Positions 3,425 to 60,656 of a DNA stretch of 64,000 nucleotides are shown one piece after another; the stretch's first letter is position 1; each line of letters opens with the position of its first letter. The notes under the pieces are model-generated. The model was not told the DNA's origin. It saw nothing but the letters and a program-made list of their open reading frames with translations, and made no database searches. The stretch lies in contig DAOUGD010000126.1 in NCBI GenBank assembly GCA_034429475.1, positions 32,818-96,817 of the forward strand. The letters run 5' to 3'. Position numbers and translations under genes: made by a program. The stretch is from Anaerolineae bacterium (GTDB taxonomy: Bacteria; Chloroflexota; Anaerolineae; B4-G1; SLSP01).

Positions 3425-3943
3425 ATGGGTTTGTTAGGTAAGCGCGATATGGGATCCCCGCAGCAAATGCACCGGGTTCACATGGCGAATGATGTGCTCT
3501 GGCTTACCGGGGAAATGGAGACGTTGGGCAACCCACACAACTACATCAACCAGGATGGCCTGAATTTCATCCGCATCAGCAACCCCCACATCACTCCATG
3601 GGGCTTCACCGGTCTGCCGGCCAGTCATACGCCGTTACTCATTATGACGCGGGAGCGCACCCAGTTGATCATCTTCCCTGACCCGGCGACGCAAGAACAA
3701 TTCCGCCCGCCGATGAAGACGGAATCCTTGATCATCAACCTCTCGCTGGCTGTGATCCGGGGAAAAGTGCCGTTTCTGAGCGAGGCCCAGGTTCACAACT
3801 TCCTGGATTTCTGGAAGGGAATCTTCTTTCCGGTGATGGATGCTTCCTTGTACTTCTTGACCGATGGCCCGGCAGAGTTACCCGGCGAGTGTGCGCTGGT
3901 TTACGTCAACCGCAACCTGATTCAAAGTTACATCGGCGGGTAG
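3425..3943 (+). CDS. hypothetical protein
   Basis: A 172-aa ORF with a strong AAGGAGG RBS 6 nt upstream. No family motif was recognised. Confidence 0.45.
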   Translation: MGLLGKRDMGSPQQMHRVHMANDVLWLTGEMETLGNPHNYINQDGLNFIRISNPHITPWGFTGLPASHTPLLIMTRERTQLIIFPDPATQEQFRPPMKTESLIINLSLAVIRGKVPFLSEAQVHNFLDFWKGIFFPVMDASLYFLTDGPAELPGECALVYVNRNLIQSYIGG

Positions 3944-3962: not shown

Positions 3963-4313
3963 ATGAAAACACCGGAGGGGCGGGAGTGCCCTTACTACTA
4001 CGTGGACTATCATCGTCGGGCGATGTCGCACGAAGTTTGCCATCTCCTGGAAGGTCGTCCGGACGCCATGCGCTGGACGAGCGCGTTGTGCGCCACATGC
4101 GCCGTCCCCGACATCAAGCGGGTCAACGGCTGCCCTTTTATGCGCCTCCACATCTTCATCGGCAAACCCTGGTGGCGTTTTTGGGGCAAAGAATCCATCC
4201 AGTTGTACGCCGACTGCGAGCGCAGTCACAAAGTGGTTGAAAACCCCTACGTAGGATGTGGCGAATGTCACCCGCCGATGCAATTTGTCGTCGGCCAAGA
4301 CCCTAAAACGTGA
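3963..4313 (+). CDS. hypothetical Cys/His-rich small protein (possible metal-binding)
   Basis: 116 aa, 19 nt after the previous stop, with 8 Cys including CATC and CGEC pairs. No known family was recognised. Confidence 0.4.
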   Translation: MKTPEGRECPYYYVDYHRRAMSHEVCHLLEGRPDAMRWTSALCATCAVPDIKRVNGCPFMRLHIFIGKPWWRFWGKESIQLYADCERSHKVVENPYVGCGECHPPMQFVVGQDPKT

Positions 4314-4427: not shown

Positions 4428-5294
4428 ATGAATTCTGAACCTGTGCGTATTGGCGTCATCGGAGGCTCCGGCTTGTACCAGATGGAGGGTCTTGCGCATC
4501 TGCGGGAAGCACATCTCTCCACTCCCTTTGGCGATCCCAGTGATGTTATCTTCATTGGCGATGTGGAGGGTGTGCCGGTGGCGTTTCTCCCCCGCCATGG
4601 TCGAGGCCATATTCACAATCCGACTGAGGTGCCCTATCGCGCCAACATCTTCGCGCTCAAGCAGTTGGGCGTGCAACAGCTCATCAGCGTCTCTGCTTGT
4701 GGCTCCTTGCGTGAGCACCTCCACCCTGGCGAGATCGTCGTGCCAGATCAGCTTTTTGACTTCACCAAACGGCGCAATAGCTCGTTTTTTGAGACGGGGT
4801 GGGTCGCGCATGTTTCGGTGGCCGAGCCTTTTTGCAATGACCTGTCCGCGCTGTTGGCCGACGCCATTGGCGCTGCCGGAGGGGTGGCGCATCATGGCGG
4901 AACGTTTATCACTATCGAAGGCCCGCGTTTCAGCACCAAGGGCGAAAGCTACGTCTACCGCGCCTGGGGCATGGACATCATCGGCATGACCGCCAGCCCG
5001 GAAGCGTTCCTGGCGCGGGAGGCCGGGATGTGCTACGCCACGATGGCGCACATCACCGACTACGACGTCTGGCACGAAAGCGCCGAAGCTGTCACGGTGG
5101 ACATGGTGATCCAGTGCCTGAATCAGAACGTGCGCCTGGCGCAGGAAACCCTCCGTTGCCTGGCGCCGCGCCTTGCTGCGCGCGACATCACGTGCGGGTG
5201 CAGTCAAGCGCTGGCTAATGCGCTGATCACCGCCCCCGACCGCATCCCATCCGAAACGCGCGCTCGCCTGAACCCATTGCTGCCCACCGCCTGA
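4428..5294 (+). CDS. mtnP: S-methyl-5'-thioadenosine phosphorylase
   Basis: The N-terminus RIGVIGGSGLY and overall PNP/MTAP-family similarity over 288 aa support this call. Confidence 0.8.
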   Translation: MNSEPVRIGVIGGSGLYQMEGLAHLREAHLSTPFGDPSDVIFIGDVEGVPVAFLPRHGRGHIHNPTEVPYRANIFALKQLGVQQLISVSACGSLREHLHPGEIVVPDQLFDFTKRRNSSFFETGWVAHVSVAEPFCNDLSALLADAIGAAGGVAHHGGTFITIEGPRFSTKGESYVYRAWGMDIIGMTASPEAFLAREAGMCYATMAHITDYDVWHESAEAVTVDMVIQCLNQNVRLAQETLRCLAPRLAARDITCGCSQALANALITAPDRIPSETRARLNPLLPTA

Positions 5295-5463
5295 TCCTCT
5301 CTGTGGCGAGCATCCAAGCTGCATGAAAATGCCATTTTTTCGACCTGTTGCGCGCGAATCAACGCTGGACATAAAAACTCCTCAACTCCTGGCGAACTCC
5401 AGGCTTTCGCACTTGTTTGCGGCTTTATCCGGGCGGGCGCGCGGTGCGGACGGCGCTACCCCT

Positions 5464-8055
5464 ATGACTCAGCCGCTCTTGCTCCTGTTGGCCGGGCTGT
5501 TTGTGGCGCTCGGCGGGGCTGCCCTGCACTTCTCTATGCACATTCCCCTTTGGCGGCTGATCATCCTCGGCGGCGGCTGGACGCTGGCCTGGGGCGCAAG
5601 TTTCTGGGTGCTGCGCGCCCGTCTCCCTGACGCCGACCCCTTCATTCTGCCCATCGTCGCGCTGTTGACCGGGTGGGGCTTACTGCTGCAAGCACGCCTG
5701 GCTCCGGCGTTTATGCTGCGCCAGACGCTCTGGCTTCTCATCGGCTGCGGTGCGCTGTGCGGCGTGGCGCTCTATCCCCGGTTGCCGCGCCTGCTGCGCC
5801 GTTACCGCTACTCCTTCCTGGCGGCCGGATTGTTGCTCCTGGGCGCCACCCTGGTCTTTGGCGTGAATCCCTCCGGCTACGGCCAGCAGCTTTGGCTGGG
5901 AGCGTTTGGCGTCTACTTCCAGCCCTCGGAGCTGCTTAAATTGCTCCTGGTGATCTACCTGGCCTCGTACTTGTGCGACCGCCGTGAGGTGCTGGCGCAA
6001 AAGAAGGTACACCATCCCCTGTGGGGCGTTGTCCTTGGTCCGATGTTAGCGATGGTGGGCGTCGCGCTGCTGCTCTTGGGGTGGCAGCAAGACCTGGGCG
6101 CGGCGCTCCTCTTCTACCTGACCTTCGTGGCGATGCTGTACCTGGCCTGGGGAAAAGTCTGGTACGTGGCCCTCAGCCTACTTGTCTTTATCCCGGTGGC
6201 GGTAGCGGGATACTTCATCTCTGACCGTGTGGCGCTGCGGGTGAGCATCTGGCTCGATCCGTGGGCGCCCGCACAGGCCGACCGCGCCTTCCAAATCCTG
6301 CAATCCCTCTTTGCCCTGGCGTCCGGCGGCATCTTCGGGCAGGGATTGGGACAGGGCGCGCCGACGTTGATCCCTGTCGTCCACTCCGATTTTGTCTACG
6401 CCGCCCTGGTGGAGGAGTTCGGTATGCTCGGCGCGTTGGCGCTGCTGGCCTTGATCGGCCTGCTGATCTATCGCGGCCTCCTGTGGGCGCAGCGGGCGGA
6501 GTCGCCGTTTGAAGCGCTGCTGGCCGGCGGCATTGCCGCCATTTGGGGGATTCAAACCTGGGTAATTTTGGGAGGCAATGCCAAACTGATCCCCATCACC
6601 GGCGTGACGCTGCCGTTTGTCAGCTATGGCGGTTCGTCCCTGTTGGTGATGTTGCTGGCCACCGGCTTGCTGCTCAACCTTTCGGCCCCGCATCCGGCGA
6701 CCTTCGCCATCTCCCTGACGCCCGACAAGGCGCCATCCTTGGCGCGCACAGCGGGCCGGTTGGGACAGGGCCTGCTGTTCTTGTTGGTAACTGTGGCGCT
6801 CGATACCGGCTGGTGGGCAGTGCTGCGCAGCGACGACCTGCGCACGTATCTGGCGAACCCCCGCTACATCCTATCCGAGAGCCGGATTCGGCGGGGCCGC
6901 GTCCTGGATCGGGCGGGGGGAACGCTGGCGGACGTTCGCGTAGATGAAGACGGCTACGTCACCCGCGCCTATCCGGCGCCGTCGGCGGCGGCGGTGGTGG
7001 GCTACGCGACGCTCCAATACGGCGCCGCCGGCATAGAAGCCGCCTGTGACTCTCGACTGCGCGGCGACGTGACGCGCACGTCCTGGGATAGAGCGGTGGA
7101 GCAATTGCTGCACCACGATCCCATTGGCGAGGACGTGCGCCTGACGTTGGACGTGCATCTGCAACGCAGCGCGCACCAGCTTCTGGCGGAGTATCAAGGC
7201 GCGGCGGTGATGGTGGATGTGCGCACCGGCGAAATTCTTGCGCTGGCCTCATCGCCGGTGTACACCTCGGCAACGGTGGCCGAGGACTGGGAGACGCTGC
7301 GCGAAGATCCGGCGGCGCCCCTGCTCAACCGCGTCACGCAGGGCTTGGCGCAACCCGGCGCGATTTTGGAGACGGTGCTGCTGGGGAGCGCCTTGGAGCG
7401 CGGCGACTTGCCGACACCCACCCTGCCTTTCACCCAGGCCGTGATTTTCAACGGCGCGACGCTGACCTGCCAGCATCCGCCTGCCGGGGAAGATTGGGCA
7501 GCCGCGCTGACCGCCGCTTGCCCGGCGCCGTTTGTGGCGTTGGGGCAGGATTTGGGCTTACCGGCTCTGGCAGAGAGTTTCGCGGCCTGGGGGCTGACCG
7601 AGGCGCCGGCTTTGGAACTGCCCACCGTTGCCGCGCCCTGGGAGCCGCAAACGGCGGATGTGGCGCGGGAAGCCCTGGGGCAGGGCGCGTTGCTGGTCAC
7701 GCCGTTGCAAATGGTGGGCGTCGCCGCCGCGTTGGGAAATGATGGCGTGCGTCCGCCCTTGCATTTGCTGTCCCGTTCGACGCCCGGCTGTGTCACGCCG
7801 GCGACCAGTGCTGAGCGCATCCTTGCATCGGAGTATGCGGCGCAACTGCGGGCACTGTGGCCGCGTTTTGGCGGGGCCGCCGGTCATCAGGGGCAGTCTT
7901 TAGCCGGCCCGGAGCGTGTGCAGACGTGGTTCATCGGCTTGGATTCGCCGGTGGCGGCGCATTACGCGGTAGCGGTGGTGGTAGAGAACGGCCATGATCC
8001 CCAGGCGGCGGCGCGCATTGGCCTGGCCCTGTTGGAGCAGGGTGTGGTGCCCTAA
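5464..8055 (+). CDS. SEDS (FtsW/RodA/SpoVE) family protein fused to a C-terminal PBP2-like transpeptidase-fold domain
   Basis: The ORF is open from 5323, but GC3 rises from ~55% to ~85% at the MTQ start (5464). The N-terminal half is multi-TM with SEDS motifs (SGGIFGQGLGQG, LPFVSYGGSSLL). The C-terminal half aligns by eye to bPBP (VMVDVRTGEILALASSP, ALGQGALLVTPLQMVGVAAALGNDG). Confidence 0.65.
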   Translation: MTQPLLLLLAGLFVALGGAALHFSMHIPLWRLIILGGGWTLAWGASFWVLRARLPDADPFILPIVALLTGWGLLLQARLAPAFMLRQTLWLLIGCGALCGVALYPRLPRLLRRYRYSFLAAGLLLLGATLVFGVNPSGYGQQLWLGAFGVYFQPSELLKLLLVIYLASYLCDRREVLAQKKVHHPLWGVVLGPMLAMVGVALLLLGWQQDLGAALLFYLTFVAMLYLAWGKVWYVALSLLVFIPVAVAGYFISDRVALRVSIWLDPWAPAQADRAFQILQSLFALASGGIFGQGLGQGAPTLIPVVHSDFVYAALVEEFGMLGALALLALIGLLIYRGLLWAQRAESPFEALLAGGIAAIWGIQTWVILGGNAKLIPITGVTLPFVSYGGSSLLVMLLATGLLLNLSAPHPATFAISLTPDKAPSLARTAGRLGQGLLFLLVTVALDTGWWAVLRSDDLRTYLANPRYILSESRIRRGRVLDRAGGTLADVRVDEDGYVTRAYPAPSAAAVVGYATLQYGAAGIEAACDSRLRGDVTRTSWDRAVEQLLHHDPIGEDVRLTLDVHLQRSAHQLLAEYQGAAVMVDVRTGEILALASSPVYTSATVAEDWETLREDPAAPLLNRVTQGLAQPGAILETVLLGSALERGDLPTPTLPFTQAVIFNGATLTCQHPPAGEDWAAALTAACPAPFVALGQDLGLPALAESFAAWGLTEAPALELPTVAAPWEPQTADVAREALGQGALLVTPLQMVGVAAALGNDGVRPPLHLLSRSTPGCVTPATSAERILASEYAAQLRALWPRFGGAAGHQGQSLAGPERVQTWFIGLDSPVAAHYAVAVVVENGHDPQAAARIGLALLEQGVVP

Positions 8056-8140: not shown

Positions 8141-8219
8141 TGGGGATAGGGATGCATCCACAGATCGAATCAAACCTTTGCACTTCGGTCACAGTAAGTA
8201 GCACTTTTAGGAGCGAGTG

Positions 8220-8921
8220 ATGAACGAAAATATTCTGCTGATTGAGGACGACGAGGCCCTGGCGCAATTGGTGCAATTATTGCTGGAACGCGCCGGTTAT
8301 ATGGTGCGTGCGGCGAATAATGGGGAGGCGGGTCTGGAAATTGCGCGCGCCCATCTCCCTGATTTGGTGCTGCTCGATATTTTGATGCCGGATATGGATG
8401 GCTGGCACGTTTATGAGGCTTTGCGGCGGATCACCGACGCGCCGGTGCTTTTCCTCACCGCGTTAGGGGACGAACACAACATCACTTATGGCCTGGGGCT
8501 GGGTGCCGATGATTACATTGTCAAACCGTTTGGGTACAAAGAGTTGGTGACGCGCGTCAAGGCTTCGCTTTCCCGCGTCCGGCGCGCGCGGGGCGAACAG
8601 ACTATTTTCCAAACTGGCAACCTCTGGGTGAACCTGGATACCCATGAAGTAAAGATTGACAACCGAATGGTCAACCTCACGCCGACGGAATTTCAACTCC
8701 TGTCGGCCCTTATTCAGGACTCCGGGCGCACGGTAAATCACGATACGCTTTTGCGGCGGGTGTGGGGGCCGGAATATTCGAACCGCCGCGATTACCTCAA
8801 GCTCTATATCTGGTATCTGCGGCAGAAGATTGAAGAAGACCCGCGCCGGCCCTTGCGGATCGTCAGTGAACGTGGGCAGGGATACCGCTTACTGATCGAA
8901 CCGCAAGAATCTGAGGGGTAA
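8220..8921 (+). CDS. OmpR-family winged-helix response regulator
   Basis: A receiver domain (LLIEDDE ... LVLLDILMPDMDG) plus a C-terminal trans_reg_C domain (LTPTEFQLLSAL ... GQGYRLL). AGGAG RBS; the ORF track starts at GTG 8217. Confidence 0.85.
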   Translation: MNENILLIEDDEALAQLVQLLLERAGYMVRAANNGEAGLEIARAHLPDLVLLDILMPDMDGWHVYEALRRITDAPVLFLTALGDEHNITYGLGLGADDYIVKPFGYKELVTRVKASLSRVRRARGEQTIFQTGNLWVNLDTHEVKIDNRMVNLTPTEFQLLSALIQDSGRTVNHDTLLRRVWGPEYSNRRDYLKLYIWYLRQKIEEDPRRPLRIVSERGQGYRLLIEPQESEG

Positions 8922-8924
8922 CCG

Positions 8925-11327
8925 GTGCTGGCGGCGCGTTGCCTGGCAGAGGCGCCGTGGCGCTTCGATCTGTGGTCGGCGATCATTGGCGCGCTTCTGG
9001 CGTGGGGGATCGCGGGCTTTCTGTATACCCGCCGCGCGGCGATAAAAACATTCGCGCTGAAATTGTGGACGCCGCTGGTGGCGCTCCGCGCGCGGCTGCA
9101 ATCCAGCCAGGAAGAACGCTATGTGGATGATTTGCAGGAGGCTCTTCGGGGTCTCCTGCTTTTTGATCCGGTGGAGCCCCAGCTTGTCTTCTGCCCACCG
9201 ACTTTTCAGACGGCGGCCCCGGTGGTAGCGGCGTCCGTCGAAGGCGACAATTTCCTCGCGCTGCTGGAAATTCGCTTTGATGCCCTGCTGGAAGGTCACC
9301 CGCGCCTGCTGATTATCGGCCCCCAGGCTGCCGGCCGCACGACGACCCTGGTGATGGTTATGCGGCAGGTATTGGCGCAGGCCAAAGGCCGGAAACCCTA
9401 TACCCGCTTCCCGGTCTGGCTTGACCTGAATTATTTCAAAGAACTCCCCAATCCGCAGGCTTCGGCGCTGGATAAGCTCGCCGCGCTGGCGAATCTTTAC
9501 TTCCCCAGCCTGGCGCCCCAATGGGCGCTGACCCACCTCCGCCGTGATCCGGCGTTGATTTTGGTGGATAACTGGGAAGCGTTGCCTCCAAACGCTCGCG
9601 ATCAGGCGGCGCGATGGATTGGGGAGCTTTCCCGCGAATTGCCGGACAGTATCTGCCTGGTTTCCAGTGGGACGGAAGGCTATGGGCTGTTTGTGGAGGC
9701 CGGCTTTGTCCCGCTCACACTGGTTCCGGCAAAGGGCGCGGCGATGGTCGAGTCGCTCTACGGCGGCTGGGCGACGCTGCTTCAGCGGCCGGGGGCGATG
9801 CCCCCAGAACTGCGCCAGCTCCTGCTCTGGGCCGATCAGGCCGGAGCTTCGTTGTTGGAACTCAATTTGCGCCTTATGTTGTATCTCCTGACCGGCCAGG
9901 CGCCGGATTTCCTCATCGAAGTCCTCGACTATCTGCTGGACATCAAAATCCCTATGCTGAATCTGGGCGAGGGGCAGGAGACTGTCGCCGAACACGCCCG
10001 CACGCTGGCCATTGCGCTGGTCGGTCAGATTGCGCGCGAGCATCGGTTGGAAGGGCGCGTCATTATGCGGCAGGCCATTTATGACCGCCTGACCGCGATG
10101 CTGCCCCCGGAGGAAGAGCGTCCGCCTCGGCTGGAGGGCGCGGCGCGCAAGCTCATCTTTGACTCCGGTTTCTTGATGCAGCGGGGCAAAGCCTGGGAAC
10201 CCTCCCATTATTTGTGGGAAGATTTTCTGACCGCCTGGCATTTGAGCGGGGAAGACATCGGCCCGGACATGTTCAAGGCGCACCTCCACGACCCCAGTTG
10301 GAGTTTCCTCTTGGAGTTTTATGTGACGTTGGGGGATGTTACGCCGTTGGTTCACACGCTGCTTCAAGAGGCCGCCACGTATCAAAATGATGAGGCGGTG
10401 CTGCGCGCTGCGCGCTGGGCCACGCTGACGCCGGATGACGTTCCCTGGCGCAAGGATGTGATTAAAACCCTGGCGGAGGTCTTCGCCGATCCGGACTTGA
10501 CGCAGGAATGGCGGCTGCGTTTTGGGCGCTGTCTCTCCCTGGTCGCCGGCGGCGAGTCGGCTGCCTTCTTCCTTTCCAGCTTGCGTCATCGTAATATCGG
10601 TGTGCGCTGCGCGGCGCTGCGGGGCATCGGCTGGGTGGGCGGCGAGCGGGAAGTTGCGTTGCTGGAAGGCGCCCTCAAGGAATCGGAGCTGGAGATCGCC
10701 CAAAGCGCCGTGGAGGCTCTGGGCGACATGGGAACCGCGGAGGCGGCCAAACTGCTCAATCGCGTGCTGCCAACGGCCAACGAACATTTGATTTTGCCCA
10801 TCGCCCACGCGCTGGCTAAGATACCGGAGGGCCACGAACTGTTACAGCAGGCCGCCGAGAGCGAGGATTTCATGCTGCGCCGGGCGGCTGCGCATGGATT
10901 GGATTTGATTAATGAACCGTGGGCCGAAACTCTGCTGCAAAAGATGGCGCGCGAAGATGATGAGTGGCTGGTGCGTTCCGCCGCCGAAACGGCGCTGCAC
11001 GCGCGCGAGGAAAAGGCCGCTCACAAGACGGTGGTTCCGCCGCCGCCTAAAGTGGACGCTCTGGAATGGCTCATTGCCTGGGCTGCGGAGCAGGGCGTGG
11101 GTCTGGGGGTGGGGACGGCCGCCGTACAAATGCTGCTGCGCGCCGTGACCGAGGGCGACGCCCGCGCCAAAACTCTCGGCGCATTGACGTTGAGCCAGAT
11201 GGGGATTCCTAAGTTCCTGCCGTTGCTGGAGCCGCTGTTGGAAGATGAGGATTATCAGGTGAAGTACACTGCGGCTTATGCGGTGGAGCAAATTAAGCAG
11301 CGTTACGCTATTGATCAGGGGACGTGA
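8925..11327 (+). CDS. membrane-anchored STAND/NACHT-like P-loop NTPase with C-terminal HEAT/PBS-lyase repeats
   Basis: GTG start 4 nt after the regulator stop with a GAGGGG SD. There is an N-terminal TM helix, a Walker A-like GPQAAGRTTT (Arg where Lys is expected), a Walker B-like ALILVDNWE, and at least 5 HEAT-like repeats at the C-terminus. Confidence 0.6.
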   Translation: MLAARCLAEAPWRFDLWSAIIGALLAWGIAGFLYTRRAAIKTFALKLWTPLVALRARLQSSQEERYVDDLQEALRGLLLFDPVEPQLVFCPPTFQTAAPVVAASVEGDNFLALLEIRFDALLEGHPRLLIIGPQAAGRTTTLVMVMRQVLAQAKGRKPYTRFPVWLDLNYFKELPNPQASALDKLAALANLYFPSLAPQWALTHLRRDPALILVDNWEALPPNARDQAARWIGELSRELPDSICLVSSGTEGYGLFVEAGFVPLTLVPAKGAAMVESLYGGWATLLQRPGAMPPELRQLLLWADQAGASLLELNLRLMLYLLTGQAPDFLIEVLDYLLDIKIPMLNLGEGQETVAEHARTLAIALVGQIAREHRLEGRVIMRQAIYDRLTAMLPPEEERPPRLEGAARKLIFDSGFLMQRGKAWEPSHYLWEDFLTAWHLSGEDIGPDMFKAHLHDPSWSFLLEFYVTLGDVTPLVHTLLQEAATYQNDEAVLRAARWATLTPDDVPWRKDVIKTLAEVFADPDLTQEWRLRFGRCLSLVAGGESAAFFLSSLRHRNIGVRCAALRGIGWVGGEREVALLEGALKESELEIAQSAVEALGDMGTAEAAKLLNRVLPTANEHLILPIAHALAKIPEGHELLQQAAESEDFMLRRAAAHGLDLINEPWAETLLQKMAREDDEWLVRSAAETALHAREEKAAHKTVVPPPPKVDALEWLIAWAAEQGVGLGVGTAAVQMLLRAVTEGDARAKTLGALTLSQMGIPKFLPLLEPLLEDEDYQVKYTAAYAVEQIKQRYAIDQGT

Positions 11328-11356: not shown

Positions 11357-11396
11357 GAGCAGATTAAGCAGGTTTTCGGCTTAATCTGCTCTTTTT
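11357..11396 (+). terminator. intrinsic terminator (13-bp stem GAGCAGATTAAGC / GCTTAATCTGCTC, then TTTTT)
   Basis: A perfect hairpin plus T-run after the STAND-HEAT gene. It overlaps the stop codon of the convergent parA-like gene. Confidence 0.55.
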
Positions 11397-12229
11397 GTGT
11401 CAGTCATTTTTATGTCCTCAGTCGGCGGCGTCCAGTTGACCTCGTGGCCGTCGCCGCGCAGTAACTCCCACGTTAAAATGCGGTAGGCCAGCGCGCCTGT
11501 CGAGCGCGGCGCGTAGAAGATGCCCGGCTCGCCATAGCTGGGCGCTTCGCTGAGCCGCACACTGCGGGGCACGATGATGTTAAACACCTTCTGGGGGAAG
11601 TGCTGGCGCACTTCGTCGGCCACCTGCCGGGAGAGCGCCGTGCGGCTATCATACATTGTCATCACCAGCCCCCGCAGCGTCAACCCCGCGTTGAGTCCCC
11701 GCTGCACCAGGGTGATGGTGTGCGTCAATTGCGACAGACCTTCCAACGCCAGGTATTCGCACTGCACCGGCACAATCACGCCCTGCGCCGCCGCCAACGC
11801 GCTGACGGTGAGGACTCCCAGGCTGGGGGGCGAATCAATCAACAGATAATCGTAGCCGTTGAGCGGCGCCAAAGCTTGTTTCAGTTGTTCGGCGCGCTCG
11901 CGTGGATCGGTCATGCGATTCAACTCGACCGTCGCGCCGGCCAGGGCGGGGGTGCTGGGGAGGATGTCCAATCGCTGCCAGCGGGTTCCCCGGACAACTT
12001 CGGGCGTGGTTTGTGTCCCCATCAGGACATCATAGATCGAAGAAGACAGGATGCGCGGGTCAATGCCCAGGCTGGTAGTGGCGTTGCATTGCGGGTCAAT
12101 GTCCACGACCAGCACGCGATAGCCCCAGTCCGCCATAGCCGCTGCCACGTTTACCACGGTCGTGGTTTTTCCCACTCCGCCTTTTTGGTTGGCGAAAACG
12201 TAAACGCGAGTCGGGCGCAGTTCATCCAT
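11381..12229 (-). CDS. ParA/Soj/MinD-family P-loop ATPase
   Basis: The KGGVGKTTTVVNVAAA deviant Walker A is present. Start was chosen at MDELRPT (12229), because the longer ORF's N-terminal extension is Pro/Arg-rich and overlaps the PfkB gene. Confidence 0.75.
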   Translation of the reverse strand: MDELRPTRVYVFANQKGGVGKTTTVVNVAAAMADWGYRVLVVDIDPQCNATTSLGIDPRILSSSIYDVLMGTQTTPEVVRGTRWQRLDILPSTPALAGATVELNRMTDPRERAEQLKQALAPLNGYDYLLIDSPPSLGVLTVSALAAAQGVIVPVQCEYLALEGLSQLTHTITLVQRGLNAGLTLRGLVMTMYDSRTALSRQVADEVRQHFPQKVFNIIVPRSVRLSEAPSYGEPGIFYAPRSTGALAYRILTWELLRGDGHEVNWTPPTEDIKMTDTKRAD

Positions 12230-13070
12230 GGGACAATCGAGAGGCGCAGAGCATCGCCTCTTCCGGGCGCGGCGTGGAGTCCAGCCCGGCGCGTGTGACC
12301 GAATACCCGGCCAGGCACGCGGCGTAGTCCGCCGCGCGCGGCGCGGGATTGCCGGCAGCCAGCGCGGCAAAGAAGGCGCTGGCGAAGATGTCGCCGGCGC
12401 CGGTGGGGTCAACTTCCGTCACCGGGAGGGCCGAGTACGTCTGAGCCTTGCCGTGGATGAACAGGGTGCCGCCCTGCCGGTTCTGAGTGACGACCAGGAT
12501 CGGGGTCTGTCGGGCGAAGTCGCGGGCCAGCGCCCAGTCGCCGCCGATGTCGTCAATGCTGAAGACGACGGCGGACGCCAGGGGCAGCACGTACTCTGCT
12601 TCAGCCCAGGCGCGCGGTATGACGTTGCCGTGCGCGTCGTGCGTGCGCATCCAGCCCTGGGGGGTGATGCCAATGAAGGTGTGCCCGGCGAAAGCCGCTA
12701 TCAGGGCGGGATCACATTCCGCCATCACCGGGCCAAGGTGCACCAGGGGACTTTGCTGCCACGCCGGGGGAATCTGGGCGGGCGTCAGGGCGGCGGCGAC
12801 GGTGTAGATCATCTGGCGGCGGCATCCGTTGGTGTAGATGTTCTCAAAAGTGGTGCTGGACGGCGCCGGGTAATTTACGATGGTCACGGCGCCGTCAAAC
12901 GCCGTGAGGCTGAGGTTGGTTTCAAAGCTGGTGAGGATGCCAACCCGACGGCCCAGCGCGGCCGCCGTCAAGGCGGCGTAGGACGCCGTTCCCCCAAGGG
13001 TGTGTCCGCCGCCTGGCAGCAGATCGCGTGTGATGTGCCCGATGACCAGGTAATCTACCGGCGTTGGCAT
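12222..13070 (-). CDS. PfkB-family carbohydrate/ribokinase-like kinase
   Basis: A GG motif near the N-terminus and the DPTGAGD anion-hole motif are both present over 282 aa. Confidence 0.75.
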   Translation of the reverse strand: MPTPVDYLVIGHITRDLLPGGGHTLGGTASYAALTAAALGRRVGILTSFETNLSLTAFDGAVTIVNYPAPSSTTFENIYTNGCRRQMIYTVAAALTPAQIPPAWQQSPLVHLGPVMAECDPALIAAFAGHTFIGITPQGWMRTHDAHGNVIPRAWAEAEYVLPLASAVVFSIDDIGGDWALARDFARQTPILVVTQNRQGGTLFIHGKAQTYSALPVTEVDPTGAGDIFASAFFAALAAGNPAPRAADYAACLAGYSVTRAGLDSTPRPEEAMLCASRLSHG

Positions 13071-13072
13071 CG

Positions 13073-14035
13073 TTATTTATCCAGTTTGCGGATGGGGATG
13101 ATGGTGATGGCGCGGTTTTCACCTTTGCCGATGCTTTCTGTCTGGACTCGCTCATCCTGACGCAGAAGCATGTGGATCACCCGCCGGTCGTGGGCCGGCA
13201 TAGGACGCAGCCGGATCGTGCGCCCGGTGTTGACGGCCTGATCGGCTTTCTTGCGGGCCAGAGATTCCAGGCTGCTGCGCTGGCGCTTGCGATAGCCGTC
13301 GGCGTCTATCACGACGTTGTAGTCGCCTTCGATGCGGTGATGGAGCAAGGTGCGGAACAGATATTGCACACTGTTGAGCGTCTGGGCGCGCGGCCCGACG
13401 AGCATATCCGCGTCGCGCCCGCGCAGGGAAATCCACAGGGTCACGCGCTCCTCCTGCCGCCAACTTAACCCCGTCTTGACGCGCAGTCCGGCGAACAGGT
13501 GTTCGGCCACTTCGTCGGCGACGGCTTCGATGGCCTGGTGATTCAGGTCGCCGGGCCGATGTTCCGCCTTCTCTCTGCGGATGGCGCTGGCAGGGCCGGA
13601 CTCTGCCCGGGCACCGGGTGCCGGTGTGGCGTCTTCCCATTCTGATTCCTCGTCGGTTTCTGTGCCTTCTTCCACTACATTGGTAATTTCTTCAGCCATT
13701 TCCAGGATGGCCTCATCCTCTTTTTCTTCCGACAAGGCGGTTTTCACGGCGGGCCGCGATGTAACCGGTTCCGCGACCGGGGCGGGCGGCGGCGCGACGG
13801 GGGTCGGCTCTACCGGCGCGGCAGGGATAGGCGCGCGAGTGACTTCCACCAGGCCGACCGGTCGCCGGGTGAGGCGCACGCGAGCCTGGCGCGCGCCCAG
13901 TCCGAGGAATCCCCGGCTGCCCTCGTCGAGTGTTTCGATAACTACATCGTCGCGGGTGACGGCCATGCGGGTCAATCCTAAAATGATGGCTTCATCAACC
14001 GAGGGCGCGGTAATTTCCATTGAGTCTTCAACCAT
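13073..14035 (-). CDS. jag: Jag/KhpB RNA-binding protein (Jag_N, KH, R3H)
   Basis: A Jag_N-like N-terminus, an acidic Pro/Ala linker and a C-terminal R3H (DRRVIHMLL ... GKGENRAITIIP). It lies directly downstream of yidC. Confidence 0.75.
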   Translation of the reverse strand: MVEDSMEITAPSVDEAIILGLTRMAVTRDDVVIETLDEGSRGFLGLGARQARVRLTRRPVGLVEVTRAPIPAAPVEPTPVAPPPAPVAEPVTSRPAVKTALSEEKEDEAILEMAEEITNVVEEGTETDEESEWEDATPAPGARAESGPASAIRREKAEHRPGDLNHQAIEAVADEVAEHLFAGLRVKTGLSWRQEERVTLWISLRGRDADMLVGPRAQTLNSVQYLFRTLLHHRIEGDYNVVIDADGYRKRQRSSLESLARKKADQAVNTGRTIRLRPMPAHDRRVIHMLLRQDERVQTESIGKGENRAITIIPIRKLDK

Positions 14036-14044
14036 AACTACCTC

Positions 14045-14827
14045 CTACTGCGCCGCCTTTTTTTGCCTAGCGGCAAGGTCTTTCTTTGGGGTGTCTTTTT
14101 CTCCATTGCCGTCGGTCGAGGCAGGGAGATGGTAATGTCTGCGGAAAAGGAAGTATTGCAAGATGCTGACCAGGTTGGAGATCAGGAAGTAGACGGCCAG
14201 CCCCGACGCATACGTTGCTGAGAAGAAGCCCATCATCAAGGGCATCATAAGCAGCATTTGCTTGTTCATGGCCTCGGCCTGCGGGTCGGTGGCCGGCGGG
14301 GTGATGAGTTTTTGGCTGTACCAGGAGGTTAGCACCACCAGGATCGGCAGGATGAACAACGAATCAGGCAATGCCAGGTCGAGCCAGAGGAACTGACTCT
14401 TTAAGGGGATCAGGGTGTTGAAGCTCGCGGCCCAGGGGTAGATGTCTTTGGACAGTTCTAGCAGTTGTAGGGGCGTTGAGGCCAGCGAGCGGATGATGGC
14501 CTGATAGGCACCGAACATCAGGGGCAGTTGCAACAGCAATGGCAGGCAGCCGCCCAACGGATTGATGCCGGATTCTTGGTAGAGTTTCATTTGCTCCTGG
14601 GCCAGCTTTTCCCGGTCGTCCTTGTACTTGCGCTGAAGTTCATCCATCTTGGGCTTCATCTCTTGCTGGCGCCGCGCCATTTTTTGCTGGTTGAGCATCA
14701 GAGGCGTGATTGCCAGGCGGAGCAGCAAAGTGATGAGGGCCACCGCCACCATCGTTTCGTGTCCCAAGAAACTATAGAATAACAACAACAGGTTGATCAG
14801 CGGTCTAACTATGAGTGTATCCCACAC
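14045..14827 (-). CDS. yidC: YidC/Oxa1-family membrane protein insertase (short form)
   Basis: 260 aa, multi-TM, with a basic C-terminal tail and a conserved position in the rnpA-yidD-yidC-jag cluster. Confidence 0.8.
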   Translation of the reverse strand: MWDTLIVRPLINLLLLFYSFLGHETMVAVALITLLLRLAITPLMLNQQKMARRQQEMKPKMDELQRKYKDDREKLAQEQMKLYQESGINPLGGCLPLLLQLPLMFGAYQAIIRSLASTPLQLLELSKDIYPWAASFNTLIPLKSQFLWLDLALPDSLFILPILVVLTSWYSQKLITPPATDPQAEAMNKQMLLMMPLMMGFFSATYASGLAVYFLISNLVSILQYFLFRRHYHLPASTDGNGEKDTPKKDLAARQKKAAQ

Positions 14828-23767: not shown

Positions 23768-26700
23768 ATGAAGTCTGTATTGAAGCATTGGCATCGCGTG
23801 TTGATGTTGGCAGTGTTGTTGGCTGCCCTCTGGTCGACGGGGGTGATGACCGCGCCGGTGGGGGACGAAAAAATACCCCCCGCTGCGGAAGTCGCCAGAA
23901 CCGCCGCGCTGGTGTGCAAGGAAGGGCATTGCTCGACCAGCGAGGTCCCCGCGCCCAATATGGCGCAGCCAGAGGTCGCCGACGGCGAAGGGCTGCTGCG
24001 CCTGCGCGCCGGCGCGTTCGACCCGGCGCTTGGGGAACCGGTCATGGCGCCCGCTTTGATGCGCGCGCTGGACAACGCCCAAACCGGCCTGCGGTTGGTG
24101 CAGTTCCCCGGCCCAATTCAGGAGGCGTGGTACGCAGCTCTTGAAGCGAGCGGCCTGCACATCATCACGTACATTCCTGATTACGCCTATCTGGTGTGGG
24201 GCAATGGAGCCGCGGTGGAGACAGTACGCATGGCCGCGCCTTTAGCCTGGGCCGGCGACTACCACCCCTTCTACGCGCTCCATCCCGATCTGACACAGGT
24301 TGACCGATTGCCGGAACGCGTTAAGGTGACGGTCCAGGTCTACGCGCACAGTGAAGCCGCTATCGTCATCAAGGACATCCTGGCGCGCGCGACTGTGATC
24401 CAGGAACCCCATCCCTCGTTGGTGTACCAGAACATGAAGATCGAGATTGCCGCGACCGACCTGACATGGCTAGCGGCCTTGCCCGGCGTGGTCAATGTGG
24501 AACCGGCCCTGGAATATCAGATGATGGACGAAATTCAGGGGCAGATTATGGCCGGCAACCTCAACGCAGCCGGCACGCGGCCCGCCGGAACCGGCTACCG
24601 GACCTGGCTGAACGGGCTGGGCTTCCCCACCGATCCGGCGAACTACCCCATTGTGGATGTCACCGACGATGGGATTGACGACGGCGACGCCACCCCGCTG
24701 CATACGGACTTCTACGAATTCGGCAGCACCAGCAACCCCGACCGGCTCATCTACAACTACAATGGCACGACTGACGCTTCGGCGGACGGCGGCGGTGGGC
24801 ATGGGAACCTCAACGCTTCCATTGTGGCCGGGTACAACACGACCACCGGTTATCCCTACGAGGACGCCAGCGGCTACAACTATGGCCTGGGCATCAACCC
24901 CTACGGGCGTGTGGCGGGCAGTAAGGTCTTCCGCAATTCCGGGTCCTGGGACTATCTCGGTTCCAACGCCGCTCTGATCGGCAATTCCTACACCCTGGGC
25001 GCGCGCATCAGCAGCAACTCGTGGGGCGCGGACACCGGCGGCGGGTACACGATCGATTGCCAGGAATACGACGCCCTGGTGCGCGATGCTTTGAGTGGGA
25101 CCGGCGGCAATCAGGAAATGATCGTCGTCTTTTCGGCCGGCAACGCCGGTTCGAGTGGTAGCAATACGATTGGGTCGCCAGGGGCGGCCAAGAATGTGAT
25201 CACGGTGGGCGCGTCCGAGAACTACCGCCCGCTGGACACGGATGGTTGCAGCATCGGCCCCACCGGGGCGAATAACGCGCAGGACATCATCAATTTCTCC
25301 AGCCGCGGCCCGACCGACGACAGCCGGATCAAGCCGGACGTGGTGGCGCCGGGCACGCACGTGATGGGCGCGGCGTCGAAGTCTCCCAACTTTGATGGCA
25401 GCGGCGTCTGCGGACCGGCGAGCGGTCTCTACTATCCCACTTCTCCGGCGCAAACGCTGTATACCTGGTCTTCCGGCACCAGTCACTCCACCCCCGCTGT
25501 GGCCGGGGCGGCCTCGCTCATTTACTATTACCATGAGACCAACTTCGGCGGCGTGGCGCCCAGTCCGGCGTTGATGAAGGCGTATCTGGTTCACGCGACC
25601 ACGTATATGACCGGTACCTATGCCAATGACACCCTGCCTTCCAACAACCAGGGATACGGTCTGACGAATCTGAGTCGCGCCTTCGATACGGTGGGTAAGT
25701 ACGTTGAGGATCAAGGTCAAATCTTTGGCGCGACCGGCGCGGCCTACGCCTACTATGGTAACGTCGAGGATTCGGGCGAGCCGGTGCGCGTGGTGTTGGC
25801 CTGGACGGACGCGCCTGGCCCGACGACCGGCAACGCTTACGTGAATAACCTGAACCTGACCGTGCAGATCAGCGGGGAGACCTACCTGGGCAACGTCTTC
25901 TCCGGCGGAGCTTCGACCACGGGCGGGACGGCGGACGCACGCAACAATGTAGAAAGCGTCTTTCTGCCGGCCGGCTTCAGCGGAGCGTTCACCGTCACCG
26001 TCGGCGCGGCCAACATCGCCGGCGACGGGGTGCCAGGCAACGCCGACACCACCGACCAGGACTTTGCGTTGTTGGTTTACAACACGAGCAACAGAAGCGA
26101 CCTAGTTGGATACATTGCGGGCACGGTGACGGACAGCAGCACCAGCGCGACCATCGCTAACGCGCGCGTTAGTGTCTATTTCAGCACCCTGACCGGCGCC
26201 GATGGAAAATACCGCCTCGCTGTTATCTCAGGTACCCACACGGTCACGGCGCAGGGGTATGGCTATATCCCGGCGTCTGCGACCGGTGTTGTCGTTACCA
26301 CAGGCATGACGACCACCCAGGACTTCACCCTGTCGCCCGCGCCGTCCTACATCCTCACCGGCACGGTGACGGACGCCAGCACCGGCTGGGCGCTTTACGC
26401 CTCGGTGGAGATTACGCCGGACGGCTATCCGGCGTTCACTGTGTGGACCAACCCCTGGACGGGCGTGTACAGCGTGACGCTGGCGGGCAGCTACCCCCAC
26501 ACCCTCACCGTGGAACCGTGGAGCGGCATCCCCGGCTACGTGGGTCAGAGCCGGCAGGTCAATTTGAGCGCGAATCGGTATAACGAGAACTTCGCGCTGG
26601 CGGCAGGCGCCCCGACGTGTAATGCGCCGGGGTATACCAGGGTTGGCCTGAACGAGGGGTTTGAATCCGCCACCTTCCCGCCCACCGGCTGGGCCAGCTT

Positions 26701-28171
26701 CCGGGGCGCAAATGGCTTGGGCACCGGCTATGATTGGGTGCGCACTACAACAGCCTATGCGGGCAGCGGCGCCGCGTATGTCCGTTATGAAGACGTGACG
26801 GGCGGCTTAGCGCAAGACTGGCTGGTGACGCCGCAAGTGCATCCGACGGCGGGGAATAGCCTCTTGAGCTTTTATATGCGGCAATACTATTCCTCCGACT
26901 GGAACACAACTTATACTATTCGTGTTTCTACGGGGAGTCAGACCACCCACGCGGATTTCACGACCGTGCGAACCTATACCGAGACTGACTTTGGCCTCAC
27001 CTACCAACCGTTCACAGTGGATCTGAGCGCGTATGTGGACCAGGATATCTACATCGCCTTTGTGATGGAACAGGACGATGGTGATAACTGGTATCTGGAC
27101 AATGTAGCGATGGCAGCCTGCATACCCCCCACCGGCGGCCTGATCGCCGGCAGTGTCTATAACCGCTACTCCCACGTTTCACTTACCGGCGCAACGGTCC
27201 GCAACCAGGATGGGTACACGCGCATCACCGCAGCCACGCCCGCCGATCCCGCGCGCAGCGAAAGCTTCTACGTCCTTTACTCACCGGCCGGTAGCAAGAC
27301 CTTCACGGCCACCATGAGCGGCTACGCGCCGGTCGTGCTCAACAACATCCCGGTGGTCGCCGGAAAAACCGGGCGGCAGGATTTCCTCTTCGGTAACGCC
27401 TTTGTCTCGCAGCAGACCGGCAATTGGAGCGGCAGCGCGTGGGCCAGCGGGACGCCCTCGGCCAACGACTGGGTCACGGTCACGACCGGGCACGTCGTCA
27501 CGGTGGATAGCGCGACGGCGGCCTGCTACGGGCTGACGGTCATGCCCGGCGGCACGTTGGTCATCCCGGCCGGTAACACGCTCACGGTGGAAGGCGTGGT
27601 GCAGAACAATGGCACGCTGCGTCAGACGCAGAACGTGGCGGCCAGCGGTTCTACCCGCTTCCTGAACCTTCAGAATCAGGCCGGCACGGCCAGCGCGTAC
27701 TACGGTGTGGACATCACGCCGGCCGCCGGGTCGGGCAGCACCACCGTGGAAGTGCGCGGCAATCAAGCCGCTTGCACGCAGAACGGCGGCGTCGGGGATA
27801 CTGCGCTGCTCAAGCGCTGCTTCGAGATTGATACCCCCGTCACCAACGCCACCGTGCGCTTCTGGTATACGACGCCCGAGCTGAACGGGCAGACGCCCAA
27901 CGCGCTGCGCCTCTGGCACTACGACGGCGCGCAGGTGTGGTCTGAGGCTGGCAGCGGCGCCTACAGCTACTCCGGCGCCACCTGCGCGGGTGATTGCTGG
28001 GTCCAGCGCGGCAACATCACCGCCTTCTCACCGTTCACGGTGGGCGGCGGCGCGGCCCCCACAGCCATCGAGTCGCTCGGCGCACGTGGGGAAAGCAGCC
28101 TGCTGCTCGCCGGTCTGGTGGTGATGGCGTTGGGACTCGTGGGCGTCGGGCGCAAACGCCTGCGCCGTTAG
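23768..28171 (+). CDS. secreted multidomain subtilisin-like (S8) serine protease with C-terminal TM anchor
   Basis: Perfect TAAGGAGG RBS and a signal peptide. Catalytic triad motifs VDVTDDGID, HGNLNASIVAG and GTSHSTPAVAGAAS are present. It also carries carboxypeptidase-regulatory-like repeats, a choice-of-anchor-J/MAM-like domain (NEGFESATFPPTGWASF) and a C-terminal hydrophobic stretch plus RKRLRR. Confidence 0.8.
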   Translation: MKSVLKHWHRVLMLAVLLAALWSTGVMTAPVGDEKIPPAAEVARTAALVCKEGHCSTSEVPAPNMAQPEVADGEGLLRLRAGAFDPALGEPVMAPALMRALDNAQTGLRLVQFPGPIQEAWYAALEASGLHIITYIPDYAYLVWGNGAAVETVRMAAPLAWAGDYHPFYALHPDLTQVDRLPERVKVTVQVYAHSEAAIVIKDILARATVIQEPHPSLVYQNMKIEIAATDLTWLAALPGVVNVEPALEYQMMDEIQGQIMAGNLNAAGTRPAGTGYRTWLNGLGFPTDPANYPIVDVTDDGIDDGDATPLHTDFYEFGSTSNPDRLIYNYNGTTDASADGGGGHGNLNASIVAGYNTTTGYPYEDASGYNYGLGINPYGRVAGSKVFRNSGSWDYLGSNAALIGNSYTLGARISSNSWGADTGGGYTIDCQEYDALVRDALSGTGGNQEMIVVFSAGNAGSSGSNTIGSPGAAKNVITVGASENYRPLDTDGCSIGPTGANNAQDIINFSSRGPTDDSRIKPDVVAPGTHVMGAASKSPNFDGSGVCGPASGLYYPTSPAQTLYTWSSGTSHSTPAVAGAASLIYYYHETNFGGVAPSPALMKAYLVHATTYMTGTYANDTLPSNNQGYGLTNLSRAFDTVGKYVEDQGQIFGATGAAYAYYGNVEDSGEPVRVVLAWTDAPGPTTGNAYVNNLNLTVQISGETYLGNVFSGGASTTGGTADARNNVESVFLPAGFSGAFTVTVGAANIAGDGVPGNADTTDQDFALLVYNTSNRSDLVGYIAGTVTDSSTSATIANARVSVYFSTLTGADGKYRLAVISGTHTVTAQGYGYIPASATGVVVTTGMTTTQDFTLSPAPSYILTGTVTDASTGWALYASVEITPDGYPAFTVWTNPWTGVYSVTLAGSYPHTLTVEPWSGIPGYVGQSRQVNLSANRYNENFALAAGAPTCNAPGYTRVGLNEGFESATFPPTGWASFRGANGLGTGYDWVRTTTAYAGSGAAYVRYEDVTGGLAQDWLVTPQVHPTAGNSLLSFYMRQYYSSDWNTTYTIRVSTGSQTTHADFTTVRTYTETDFGLTYQPFTVDLSAYVDQDIYIAFVMEQDDGDNWYLDNVAMAACIPPTGGLIAGSVYNRYSHVSLTGATVRNQDGYTRITAATPADPARSESFYVLYSPAGSKTFTATMSGYAPVVLNNIPVVAGKTGRQDFLFGNAFVSQQTGNWSGSAWASGTPSANDWVTVTTGHVVTVDSATAACYGLTVMPGGTLVIPAGNTLTVEGVVQNNGTLRQTQNVAASGSTRFLNLQNQAGTASAYYGVDITPAAGSGSTTVEVRGNQAACTQNGGVGDTALLKRCFEIDTPVTNATVRFWYTTPELNGQTPNALRLWHYDGAQVWSEAGSGAYSYSGATCAGDCWVQRGNITAFSPFTVGGGAAPTAIESLGARGESSLLLAGLVVMALGLVGVGRKRLRR

Positions 28172-46664: not shown

Positions 46665-47084
46665 ATGGCATGGAAGCCGACACTTCCCAAAGACGCGGTC
46701 ATCCTGATTGTGGAGGATAACCTCAATAATTTCATCTTGATGACCCGCTTACTGGCCTTTTTGGGCGTGAAAAAGTGTGAGTGGAAGGCTTCCGGTTGGA
46801 AAGTGTTGGAGTTTGCCGAAACGCTGGGGAACGTCAGCCTGATTCTGATGGATATGAATCTACCAGAGGCCGACGGTTTTCAAGCGTTGGCGTCGTTACG
46901 TTCGCATCAGCGTTTCGTGGATGTGCCGATTGTGGCGGTAACGGCTCACGTATCTAGGGAAAATCTCAGCCGCGCGCGGCAGGCTGGATTTAACGGTTTT
47001 ATCGGCAAGCCTTTGGACCCGGAGCGTTTTCCCGAACAAATCCGCCGCGCCCTGCAAGGTGAGGAGGTATGGGAGCCGGAGTAG
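46665..47084 (+). CDS. single-domain CheY-like response regulator (receiver only)
   Basis: ILIVEDN ... LILMDMNLPEADG ... VAVTAH ... KPLD. Confidence 0.8.
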   Translation: MAWKPTLPKDAVILIVEDNLNNFILMTRLLAFLGVKKCEWKASGWKVLEFAETLGNVSLILMDMNLPEADGFQALASLRSHQRFVDVPIVAVTAHVSRENLSRARQAGFNGFIGKPLDPERFPEQIRRALQGEEVWEPE

Positions 47085-55277: not shown

Positions 55278-55298
55278 CCTGCCCCGGGTGCGGAGGCT

Positions 55299-59365: not shown

Positions 59366-59367
59366 CC

Positions 59368-60591: not shown

Positions 60592-60646
60592 CGAATTACG
60601 AATGACGAATAACGAATTACGAATCACGAATTGTGAATTTCGGATG
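60582..60646. repeat. 8-mer tandem repeat (CGAATNAC variants x8) spanning the stop codon of paralog 6
   Basis: Read directly from the sequence. It belongs to the same family as the array at 29846. Confidence 0.65.
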
Positions 60647-60656
60647 AGGCAGGTCA

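Follow-up and report, generated by a model that had tools for sequence, protein, structure and literature searches.

A SEDS Glycosyltransferase Fused to a Class B Penicillin-Binding Protein That Lacks the Transpeptidase Motifs in Anaerolineae

Introduction

A 64,000-nucleotide stretch of contig DAOUGD010000126.1 (assembly GCA_034429475.1, an Anaerolineae bacterium of the Chloroflexota), which we refer to as the window, carries a plus-strand gene that joins a RodA/FtsW-type SEDS glycosyltransferase to a penicillin-binding protein of class B (bPBP) and PbpA subtype in one polypeptide. In the alignments described below, the catalytic Ser and Lys of the SxxK motif, Ser and Asn of SxN, and Lys and Thr of KTG have all given way to other residues, both in this protein and throughout the clade to which it belongs. 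In most bacteria, the core cell-wall synthases are SEDS-bPBP pairs, which beta-lactams target. FtsW polymerizes Lipid II only with its cognate bPBP (bioRxiv 10.1101/358663), and the separability of bPBP activation from cross-linking has so far been addressed by means of engineered point mutants. For example, B. subtilis PBP2b and C. difficile SpoVD(S311A), both made catalytically inactive, continue to support their SEDS partners, with another PBP performing the cross-linking (PMC12713402; PMC12516126).

SEDS-bPBP chimeras were catalogued in 2025 as putative "bifunctional" class B synthases, a set of 117 InterPro proteins that includes a 947-residue protein of Rhodococcus jostii RHA1 and a 931-residue protein of Senegalimassilia faecalis (Microlife, PMC12516126). 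These chimeras were classed by domain architecture, and the main text of that study makes no mention of active-site motifs (PMC12516126). The original prediction for the gene described here, which was made from the DNA letters alone, held that SEDS and bPBP proteins normally work as separate pairs. This statement needs qualification, since the fused architecture had already been published (PMC12516126); unfused adjacent pairs do exist among the relatives of the gene, and some of these are motif-less too.

Results

One Open Reading Frame Encodes a SEDS Domain, a Pedestal, and a Transpeptidase Fold

An uninterrupted open reading frame (ORF) spans positions 5323..8055 of the plus strand; with the ATG at 5323 as its start, it encodes 910 residues. 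The start chosen in public gene calls is the ATG at 5464, which gives the 863-residue protein whose numbering is used throughout, and one database protein (P0001) is 100% identical to it. Pfam identifies three domains in order, FTSW_RODA_SPOVE, PBP_dimer_2 and Transpeptidase, all well over their gathering cut-offs (Table 1). A complete SEDS domain and a PBP-type C-terminal region thus share a single ORF, as had been predicted, and the presence of glycosyltransferase, pedestal and transpeptidase domains in one polypeptide makes the protein a "bifunctional" chimera by architecture.

An AlphaFold2 (AF2) model built on 73 homologues is confident throughout with the exception of the linker (predicted local distance difference test score (pLDDT) 92.4, predicted TM-score (pTM) 0.82). 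In the model, a 10-helix SEDS core is followed by a low-confidence cytoplasmic linker, an eleventh transmembrane (TM) helix, the pedestal, and the PBP fold. The linker is the lowest-confidence block (pLDDT about 58) and also the least conserved segment of the protein, and in unfused relatives the SEDS stop codon and the start of the PbpA-like gene fall at its position. Similarly, TM helix 11 aligns with the N-terminal TM helix of stand-alone PbpA-like relatives. The linker is in frame, and the modeled topology fits a head-to-tail fusion in which the cytoplasmic C-terminus of the SEDS protein runs into the cytoplasmic N-terminus of a bPBP with one TM helix.

Table 1. Positions in the window of the fused gene, its domains and motifs, and the conserved upstream gene. 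Ratios of nonsynonymous to synonymous substitution rates (dN/dS) are Nei-Gojobori values from eight close pairs.
Feature	Position	Strand	Residues	Basis and details	dN/dS
Whole fused gene	5464..8055	+	863 aa plus stop	Alternative upstream ATG at 5323 gives 910 aa; ORF list, translation, exact match to P0001	
SEDS (FtsW/RodA/SpoVE) glycosyltransferase domain	5707..6687	+	aa 82-408	PF01098, 243.7 bits, cut-off 26.4; the 10-TM core spans about aa 1-407	0.045-0.146
FQPSELLKL	5917..5943	+		E156 and K159 equivalent to T. thermophilus RodA E108 and K111 (phmmer alignment to 6bar_A)	
H-S-D	6382..6390	+		D309, the essential SEDS aspartate, equivalent to T. thermophilus RodA D255 (phmmer alignment to 6bar_A)	
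Cytoplasmic linker and fusion junction, SEDS TM10 to bPBP anchor	6685..6738	+	aa 408-425		
Eleventh TM helix, the N-terminal membrane anchor of the bPBP half	6739..6825	+	aa 426-454	AF2 helix	
PbpA-type pedestal (PBP_dimer_2)	6892..7137	+	aa 477-558	PF21922, 40.9 bits, cut-off 27	0.075-0.167
Transpeptidase-fold domain without catalytic residues	7198..8052	+	aa 579-863	PF00905, 67.4 bits, cut-off 22.1; Pfam match aa 579-797	0.104-0.358
A-I-L-E at the SxxK position	7360..7371	+	aa 633-636	Ser to Ala, Lys to Glu; follows invariant Q-P-G	
A-C-P at the SxN position	7516..7524	+	aa 685-687	Ser to Ala, Asn to Pro; opposite S-C-N	
H-Q-G at the KTG position	7885..7893	+	aa 808-810	Lys to His, Thr to Gln	
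S-methyl-5'-thioadenosine phosphorylase (MTAP) gene	4428..5294	+		NCBIfam TIGR01694, 301 bits, cut-off 275	

The N-terminal half belongs to the SEDS family by its Pfam score and matches solved structures of both FtsW and RodA (E-values of 1e-35 to 1e-29). It is not assignable to either subfamily, because its scores against the NCBIfam equivalogs ftsW (252.7) and rodA (194.7) both lie under the cut-offs of about 337. Residues Q153, P154 and E156 are invariant among 73 homologues, and so is D309. Judged by its alignment to T. thermophilus RodA (Table 1), the SEDS half retains the residues known as essential for polymerase activity.

The best matches of the C-terminal half among solved structures are the PbpA-type class B PBPs 4n1x, 4mnr and 3un7 (1e-24 to 1e-26). 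Foldseek comparison with PbpA-type structures gives TM-scores of 0.74-0.80 at 24-28% identity, and the top match is M. tuberculosis PbpA (3un7; TM-score 0.77 on the target). PBP_dimer_2 is a small pedestal domain that was originally described from M. tuberculosis PbpA. With membrane anchor, PbpA-type pedestal and transpeptidase fold all present, this half is by architecture a class B PBP of the PbpA subtype.

The Residues of SxxK, SxN, and KTG Are Replaced

What has become of the active site? Motif positions were mapped with HMMER residue-level alignments to five PbpA-type structures, including 4n1x, 4mnr and 3un7. The PG-AILE of the fusion protein stands opposite the PG-S[ST]FK of these structures, and AILE at the SxxK position, which had been proposed by eye, is confirmed by the alignments to all three named structures. 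Likewise, A-C-P occupies the SxN position, and Cys686 at its center is ancestral, being the middle residue of the PbpA SCN motif. The HMMER pairwise alignment put the KTG site at S-L-A-G (812-815), with the motif itself at 813-815. In an ungapped alignment with intact Chloroflexota PbpA, AGKTGTA...HAWFIG is matched by AGHQGQS...QTWFIG with the same spacing to the WFIG strand. This makes H808-Q809-G810 the counterpart of KTG; it lies five residues upstream of the HMMER placement and within AF2 strand beta3 (aa 805-813). No K[ST]G is found in the transpeptidase-like domain under either alignment; the predicted loss of KTG stands, and the site is H-Q-G rather than the L-A-G originally read there.

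All three motifs, SxxK, SxN and K[ST]G, are thus missing from the protein. We predict from this loss that the fusion protein does not bind penicillin covalently.

Motif Loss Is Shared by a Large Clade

The orthologue set consists of the best 120 matches (clusters) from a search of 5.8 billion proteins. At the position of the SxxK lysine, these orthologues have Gln in 62 cases, Glu in 48, Ala in seven, Gly in two and His in one, and Lys in none. The position of the serine, which the original prediction had singled out for comparison among orthologous fusions, is Ala in 52, Thr in 30, and Ser and Gly in 15 each, with Met and Pro also seen. The SxN site reads [AG]-C-P, the Cys and the Pro each being present in 119 of 120, and the KTG lysine is replaced by His in 111 of 120 and is never Lys.

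An exhaustive HMMER search with the C-terminal half, covering 1.84 billion 50%-identity representatives, returned 451 at E<1e-30. Among the best 150 of these 451, the motifs are missing in 142, and S-x-x-K together with S-[CV]-N is intact in only eight. The 142 motif-less representatives comprise both fused proteins (about 860-940 aa) and stand-alone proteins (about 440-490 aa) with an N-terminal TM helix of their own. For contrast, we assembled 83 intact Chloroflexota PbpA homologues, chosen out of 117 relatives found because they carry all three motifs; as that choice implies, S, K, S, N, K and T align at the same six positions, with 100% for each of the SxN and KTG residues. Between matches to the dead form and matches to an intact Anaerolineae PbpA, compared through the lengths of their longest contigs only, no length was shared.

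The genomic setting was examined in a scan of one genome per GTDB species, made with a narrow alignment of the C-terminal half that biased the resulting loci towards Anaerolineae. Relatives were found in 127 species genomes, and 80 loci were kept. All 80 are from Chloroflexota metagenome-assembled genomes (MAGs), distributed over Anaerolineales, Thermoflexales/Thermoflexia, Ardenticatenaceae, Promineifilaceae and Ca. Leptofilum. The motifs are lost in 77 of the 80 loci, fused and split alike. Intact PPGS[TS][FW]K, SCN and GKTG occur only in L075, L079 and L080, all of which are split. We conclude that the catalytic Ser/Lys, Ser/Asn and Lys/Thr pairs are replaced in the query and across the clade. 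As far as alignments can tell, the transpeptidase would be catalytically dead, as was originally suggested.

The Fusion Recurs and Probably Followed the Loss of Catalysis

The 120 orthologues are 858-973 aa long and are 53-100% identical to the query over 91-100% of its length (at least 96% for all but three). SEDS and transpeptidase domains are present in all 120 and PBP_dimer_2 in 119. The sequences derive from NCBI, JGI, ENA and Logan assemblies, and those with names are from Anaerolineae or Chloroflexota MAGs. An identical protein occurs on nine contigs. The 80 loci comprise 60 fused genes, 18 cases of a SEDS gene followed by a separate PbpA-like gene, and two fragments. With the exception of L077, in which the genes are about 1.6 kb apart, the two genes of the split loci abut or overlap (17 of 18).

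A neighbor-joining tree, which is rough and has no support values, places all dead forms in one clade apart from the intact ones, with split dead lineages at the base and one large fused clade. Two loci depart from this pattern, L027 being split although it groups within the fused clade and L053 being fused although it groups with split forms. In L027 (8568-11257), the two halves are separated by a stop. Fused relatives with intact motifs also exist (P0163, P0222), and these fall outside the dead clade.

Gene order bears on this history as well. In 54 of the 80 loci, the SEDS gene has an MTAP homologue upstream, which in 52 ends immediately 5' of it; in L042 and L055 the homologue is several kb away. 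The MTAP-SEDS-PbpA synteny is common to fused, split-dead and split-intact loci. Since the intact L079 and L080 are among the 52, the dead genes and an intact rodA-pbpA pair are positional orthologues. The most parsimonious history is that motif loss arose once, in an Anaerolineae lineage in which the genes were still separate, and is older than the fusion: an adjacent SEDS-PbpA pair would have lost catalysis and then undergone gene fusion. MTAP is a conserved synteny marker, and a link between it and cell-wall synthesis is not apparent.

The Former Active Site Remains Under Constraint

Across the 120 orthologues, identity to the query averages 0.73 for the SEDS domain, 0.60 for the pedestal and 0.53 for the transpeptidase-like domain, and the dN/dS ranges follow the same order (Table 1). 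By these values, the transpeptidase-like domain is more relaxed yet clearly under purifying selection. Which residues of the ancestral PbpA have been kept? The 83 intact Chloroflexota PbpA homologues were set against 120 fused-dead and 91 split-dead sequences at positions that are at least 85% conserved in the intact set. The fused-dead clade retains 21 of 26 such positions in the pedestal and 37 of 77 in the transpeptidase-like domain. The retained positions are framework residues, namely S596/P598, N622-R623, P631-G632, C686, G739-Q740-G741, P747, G807 and W822-F823. The altered positions include the six catalytic residues and their cleft neighbors Y629, F635, T639 and H820. Some of the substituted residues hardly vary within the fused clade (Q630 in 100%, P687 in 99%, H808 in 93% and R818 in 99%), which shows the old cleft to be under constraint and not simply tolerated.

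Discussion

What does a SEDS protein gain from a bPBP that has lost its chemistry? We propose, as the probable reading of these sequences, that a bPBP without catalytic function is tethered to the SEDS polymerase as its activator or scaffold, and that the glycan is cross-linked by some other enzyme. The proposal draws on the precedent of bPBPs that support their SEDS partners independently of their own catalysis. First, the former operon partner, a PbpA-type class B PBP, would have been fused to the RodA/FtsW-type SEDS protein through a short cytoplasmic linker. Second, the PBP half has kept its anchor, pedestal and fold and has lost every residue on which acyl-enzyme catalysis depends. Third, the dead PBP half may act through its TM helix and pedestal on the SEDS half, as an allosteric activator or scaffold that is obligatory and permanently tethered. 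The enzyme that cross-links the glycans would be encoded at another place in the genome and could be a further bPBP, a class A PBP or an L,D-transpeptidase, and the former active-site cleft, still constrained, may bind peptidoglycan or stem peptide without acylation. The scaffold or pedestal role suggested in the original prediction fits the purifying selection, the stronger retention of the pedestal relative to the transpeptidase-like domain, and the behavior of engineered dead bPBPs (PMC12713402), which fall short of proving it.

How does the fusion compare with known systems? The closest family is the RodA-PbpA pair of Actinobacteria (M. tuberculosis Rv0017c-Rv0016c, structures 3UN7 and 3LO7; Atopobium/Eggerthella homologues 4N1X and 4MNR). 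The two protein families and the gene order are the same, SEDS followed by a PbpA-type protein with PBP_dimer_2, and both conserved cysteines are kept, including that of SCN. Unlike the actinobacterial pair, the Anaerolineae protein is one polypeptide, without SxxK, SxN and KTG in its PBP half. The surroundings in the genome differ as well: the Anaerolineae gene has MTAP upstream and an OmpR-type regulator downstream, whereas the actinobacterial pair lies in the fhaA-fhaB-pstP...pknA-pknB cluster. T. thermophilus RodA-PBP2 (6PL5, 6PL6) provides a working model of how the halves cooperate, and its RodA residues E108, K111 and D255 are kept in the fusion. Sjodt et al. 2020 reportedly found that the TM helix and pedestal of the bPBP contact the SEDS protein and switch on polymerization. 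In contrast to the Anaerolineae fusion, T. thermophilus RodA-PBP2 and FtsW-bPBP complexes are non-covalent and contain an active bPBP with the canonical PBP_dimer pedestal. The engineered dead bPBPs PBP2b and SpoVD(S311A) resemble the Anaerolineae PBP half in supporting a SEDS protein without catalysis of their own, the role we propose here; however, they are laboratory point mutants of active enzymes, whereas in Anaerolineae all three motifs were lost naturally and the loss is fixed over a class-level lineage. Finally, the catalogued chimeras share the N-to-C order of glycosyltransferase, PBPA-type pedestal and transpeptidase and a length of about 860-950 aa (PMC12516126). The "bifunctional" label does not suit the Anaerolineae clade, which on sequence grounds cannot be bifunctional, since its transpeptidase module lacks all of the catalytic residues.

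Several observations weigh against the proposed reading. Family hidden Markov models (HMMs), together with Pfam on the large ORFs, detect no other PBP, SEDS, YkuD or transglycosylase gene in the 64-kb window, and family HMMs detect no second PBP or SEDS gene within 10 kb in the 80 related loci; the separate cross-linking enzyme is an assumption of the model. In addition, the nucleophile position is occupied by Ser or Thr in 45 of the 120 orthologues, in no case together with the Lys. Lastly, the conservation of Q630, P687, H808 and R818 exceeds what a pure scaffold would need and leaves room for ligand binding or another function.

This last point is the starting place for the alternative that survives best, which we regard as possible and well short of probable. 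The old cleft might bind stem peptide, nascent glycan or some other ligand non-catalytically, and the PBP half would then sense this ligand or gate the SEDS protein as a receptor, not as an inert scaffold. The residues of the old site are among the most conserved in the domain (Q-P-G at 100%, C-P at 99%, G-H at 99% and 93%, R818 and W822 at 99% each, compared with a domain mean of 0.61 for the majority residue), and the cleft framework is kept in N622-R623, G739-Q740-G741, P747 and the beta3 residues G807 and G810. However, it is mainly within the fused subclade that H808 and R818 are conserved. Since Ardenticatenaceae-type split forms have Phe and Ser or Gly, respectively, at these positions, a "new site" is not uniform over the dead family, and the conservation of PG, C686 and GQG is structural and ancestral.

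Non-canonical catalysis is improbable. In this scheme, transpeptidation, carboxypeptidation or hydrolysis would proceed, for example, from Ser or Thr at position 633 with His808 as the base, consistent with the 45 hydroxyl-bearing orthologues and with His in place of the KTG lysine in 93%. However, residue 633 is Ala in the query and in 52 of the 120 orthologues, and Gly, Met and Pro occur there too, so the proposed nucleophile is not conserved. Moreover, the general-base Lys is never present, and the Ser and Asn of SxN are both gone. A Cys-His pair formed by C686 and H808 was also considered and set aside: C686 is the middle residue of the ancestral SCN and is co-conserved with C669, which points to a structural disulfide and not to a free thiol.

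Still less credible is the idea that the C-terminal half is a functionless, decaying relic on its way to loss. The transpeptidase-like domain is indeed the least conserved folded part of the protein, with a dN/dS above that of the SEDS half. Nevertheless, its dN/dS of 0.10-0.36 is far below 1, the domain is full length with no truncations in the 120 clusters or the 127 species genomes, the AF2 model is confident throughout it, and the dead form persists as a separate gene in deep branches. That the fusion is an assembly or sequencing artefact joining two genes that are adjacent and sometimes overlapping in related genomes, as the split L027 within the fused clade might suggest, has next to no chance of being right: the fused ORF recurs in the 120 independent clusters and in 60 of the 80 species-level MAG loci, the identical protein is found on several contigs, the linker is in frame and the topology is right. 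The covalent SEDS-bPBP fusion that was originally inferred is therefore genuine and owes nothing to a frameshift.

Returning to the tethered, non-catalytic activator, what would it mean for the lineage? The pattern suggests that evolution itself separated the two bPBP roles, maintained the outcome by purifying selection in 77 or more species-level genomes, and then joined the dead partner to the polymerase. A broader and decidedly tentative extension is that much of Anaerolineae has uncoupled glycan polymerization from D,D-transpeptidation, the pseudoenzyme cleft reading peptidoglycan or stem peptide and gating the polymerase, and cross-linking being left to, for example, L,D-transpeptidases or class A PBPs. 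If these proposals are correct, the proteins would be the first natural pseudo-bPBP family and a natural experiment that parts the activator role of bPBPs from their enzyme role. They would also provide, for structural and biochemical study, a SEDS-activator complex that occurs naturally as a 1:1 single chain, and they would represent a SEDS machine predicted to be insensitive to beta-lactams. The fold, the partnership and the fusion were already known; what looks new is an ancient, selected loss of all transpeptidase chemistry that appears to extend across much of a bacterial class. We found no account of a naturally motif-less bPBP lineage or of Anaerolineae cell-wall synthases in the literature, which is weak evidence because most subscription journals lie outside the coverage of the search.

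These findings also call for caution in annotation. Names in use for such proteins include "FtsW/RodA/SpoVE family cell cycle protein", "FtsI/penicillin-binding protein 2" and "bifunctional", and the stand-alone dead form goes by "hypothetical protein", which is the NCBI name of the dead PbpA-like MBL8154385.1 (P0152).

Neighboring Genes in the Window

Two plus-strand ORFs upstream of the MTAP gene, one of 172 aa (3425-3943) and a cysteine-rich one of 116 aa (3963-4313), have no Pfam or NCBIfam match; some 30 related loci conserve both in place. The OmpR/MtrA-like response regulator (8217-8921, plus strand) directly follows the fusion gene on its downstream side. It is 79-99% identical in 40 loci, far above the conservation of its neighbors, and has no adjacent histidine kinase. 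An 800-aa HEAT-repeat protein follows the regulator (8925-11327, plus strand) and is conserved in 33 loci. On the minus strand, a ParA/MinD-like ATPase, a PfkB-like ORF, Jag (Jag_N and R3H domains) and YidC lie in a row (11381-14827), an arrangement that resembles the gene set usually adjacent to bacterial replication origins.

Farther downstream, 23768-28171 (plus strand) encodes a 1467-aa protein with subtilase S8 and CarboxypepD_reg domains. A 910-aa ORF at 43239-45971 (plus strand) has no Pfam match at E<=1e-4; it agrees in length with the long form of the fusion ORF by coincidence, and by HMM search the two are unrelated. Finally, eight large sensor-type genes of about 400-940 aa stand in tandem on the plus strand (47069-63470) and contain GAF, HAMP, dCache, MASE11 and periplasmic-binding domains; HisKA and HATPase domains are found on the first gene only.

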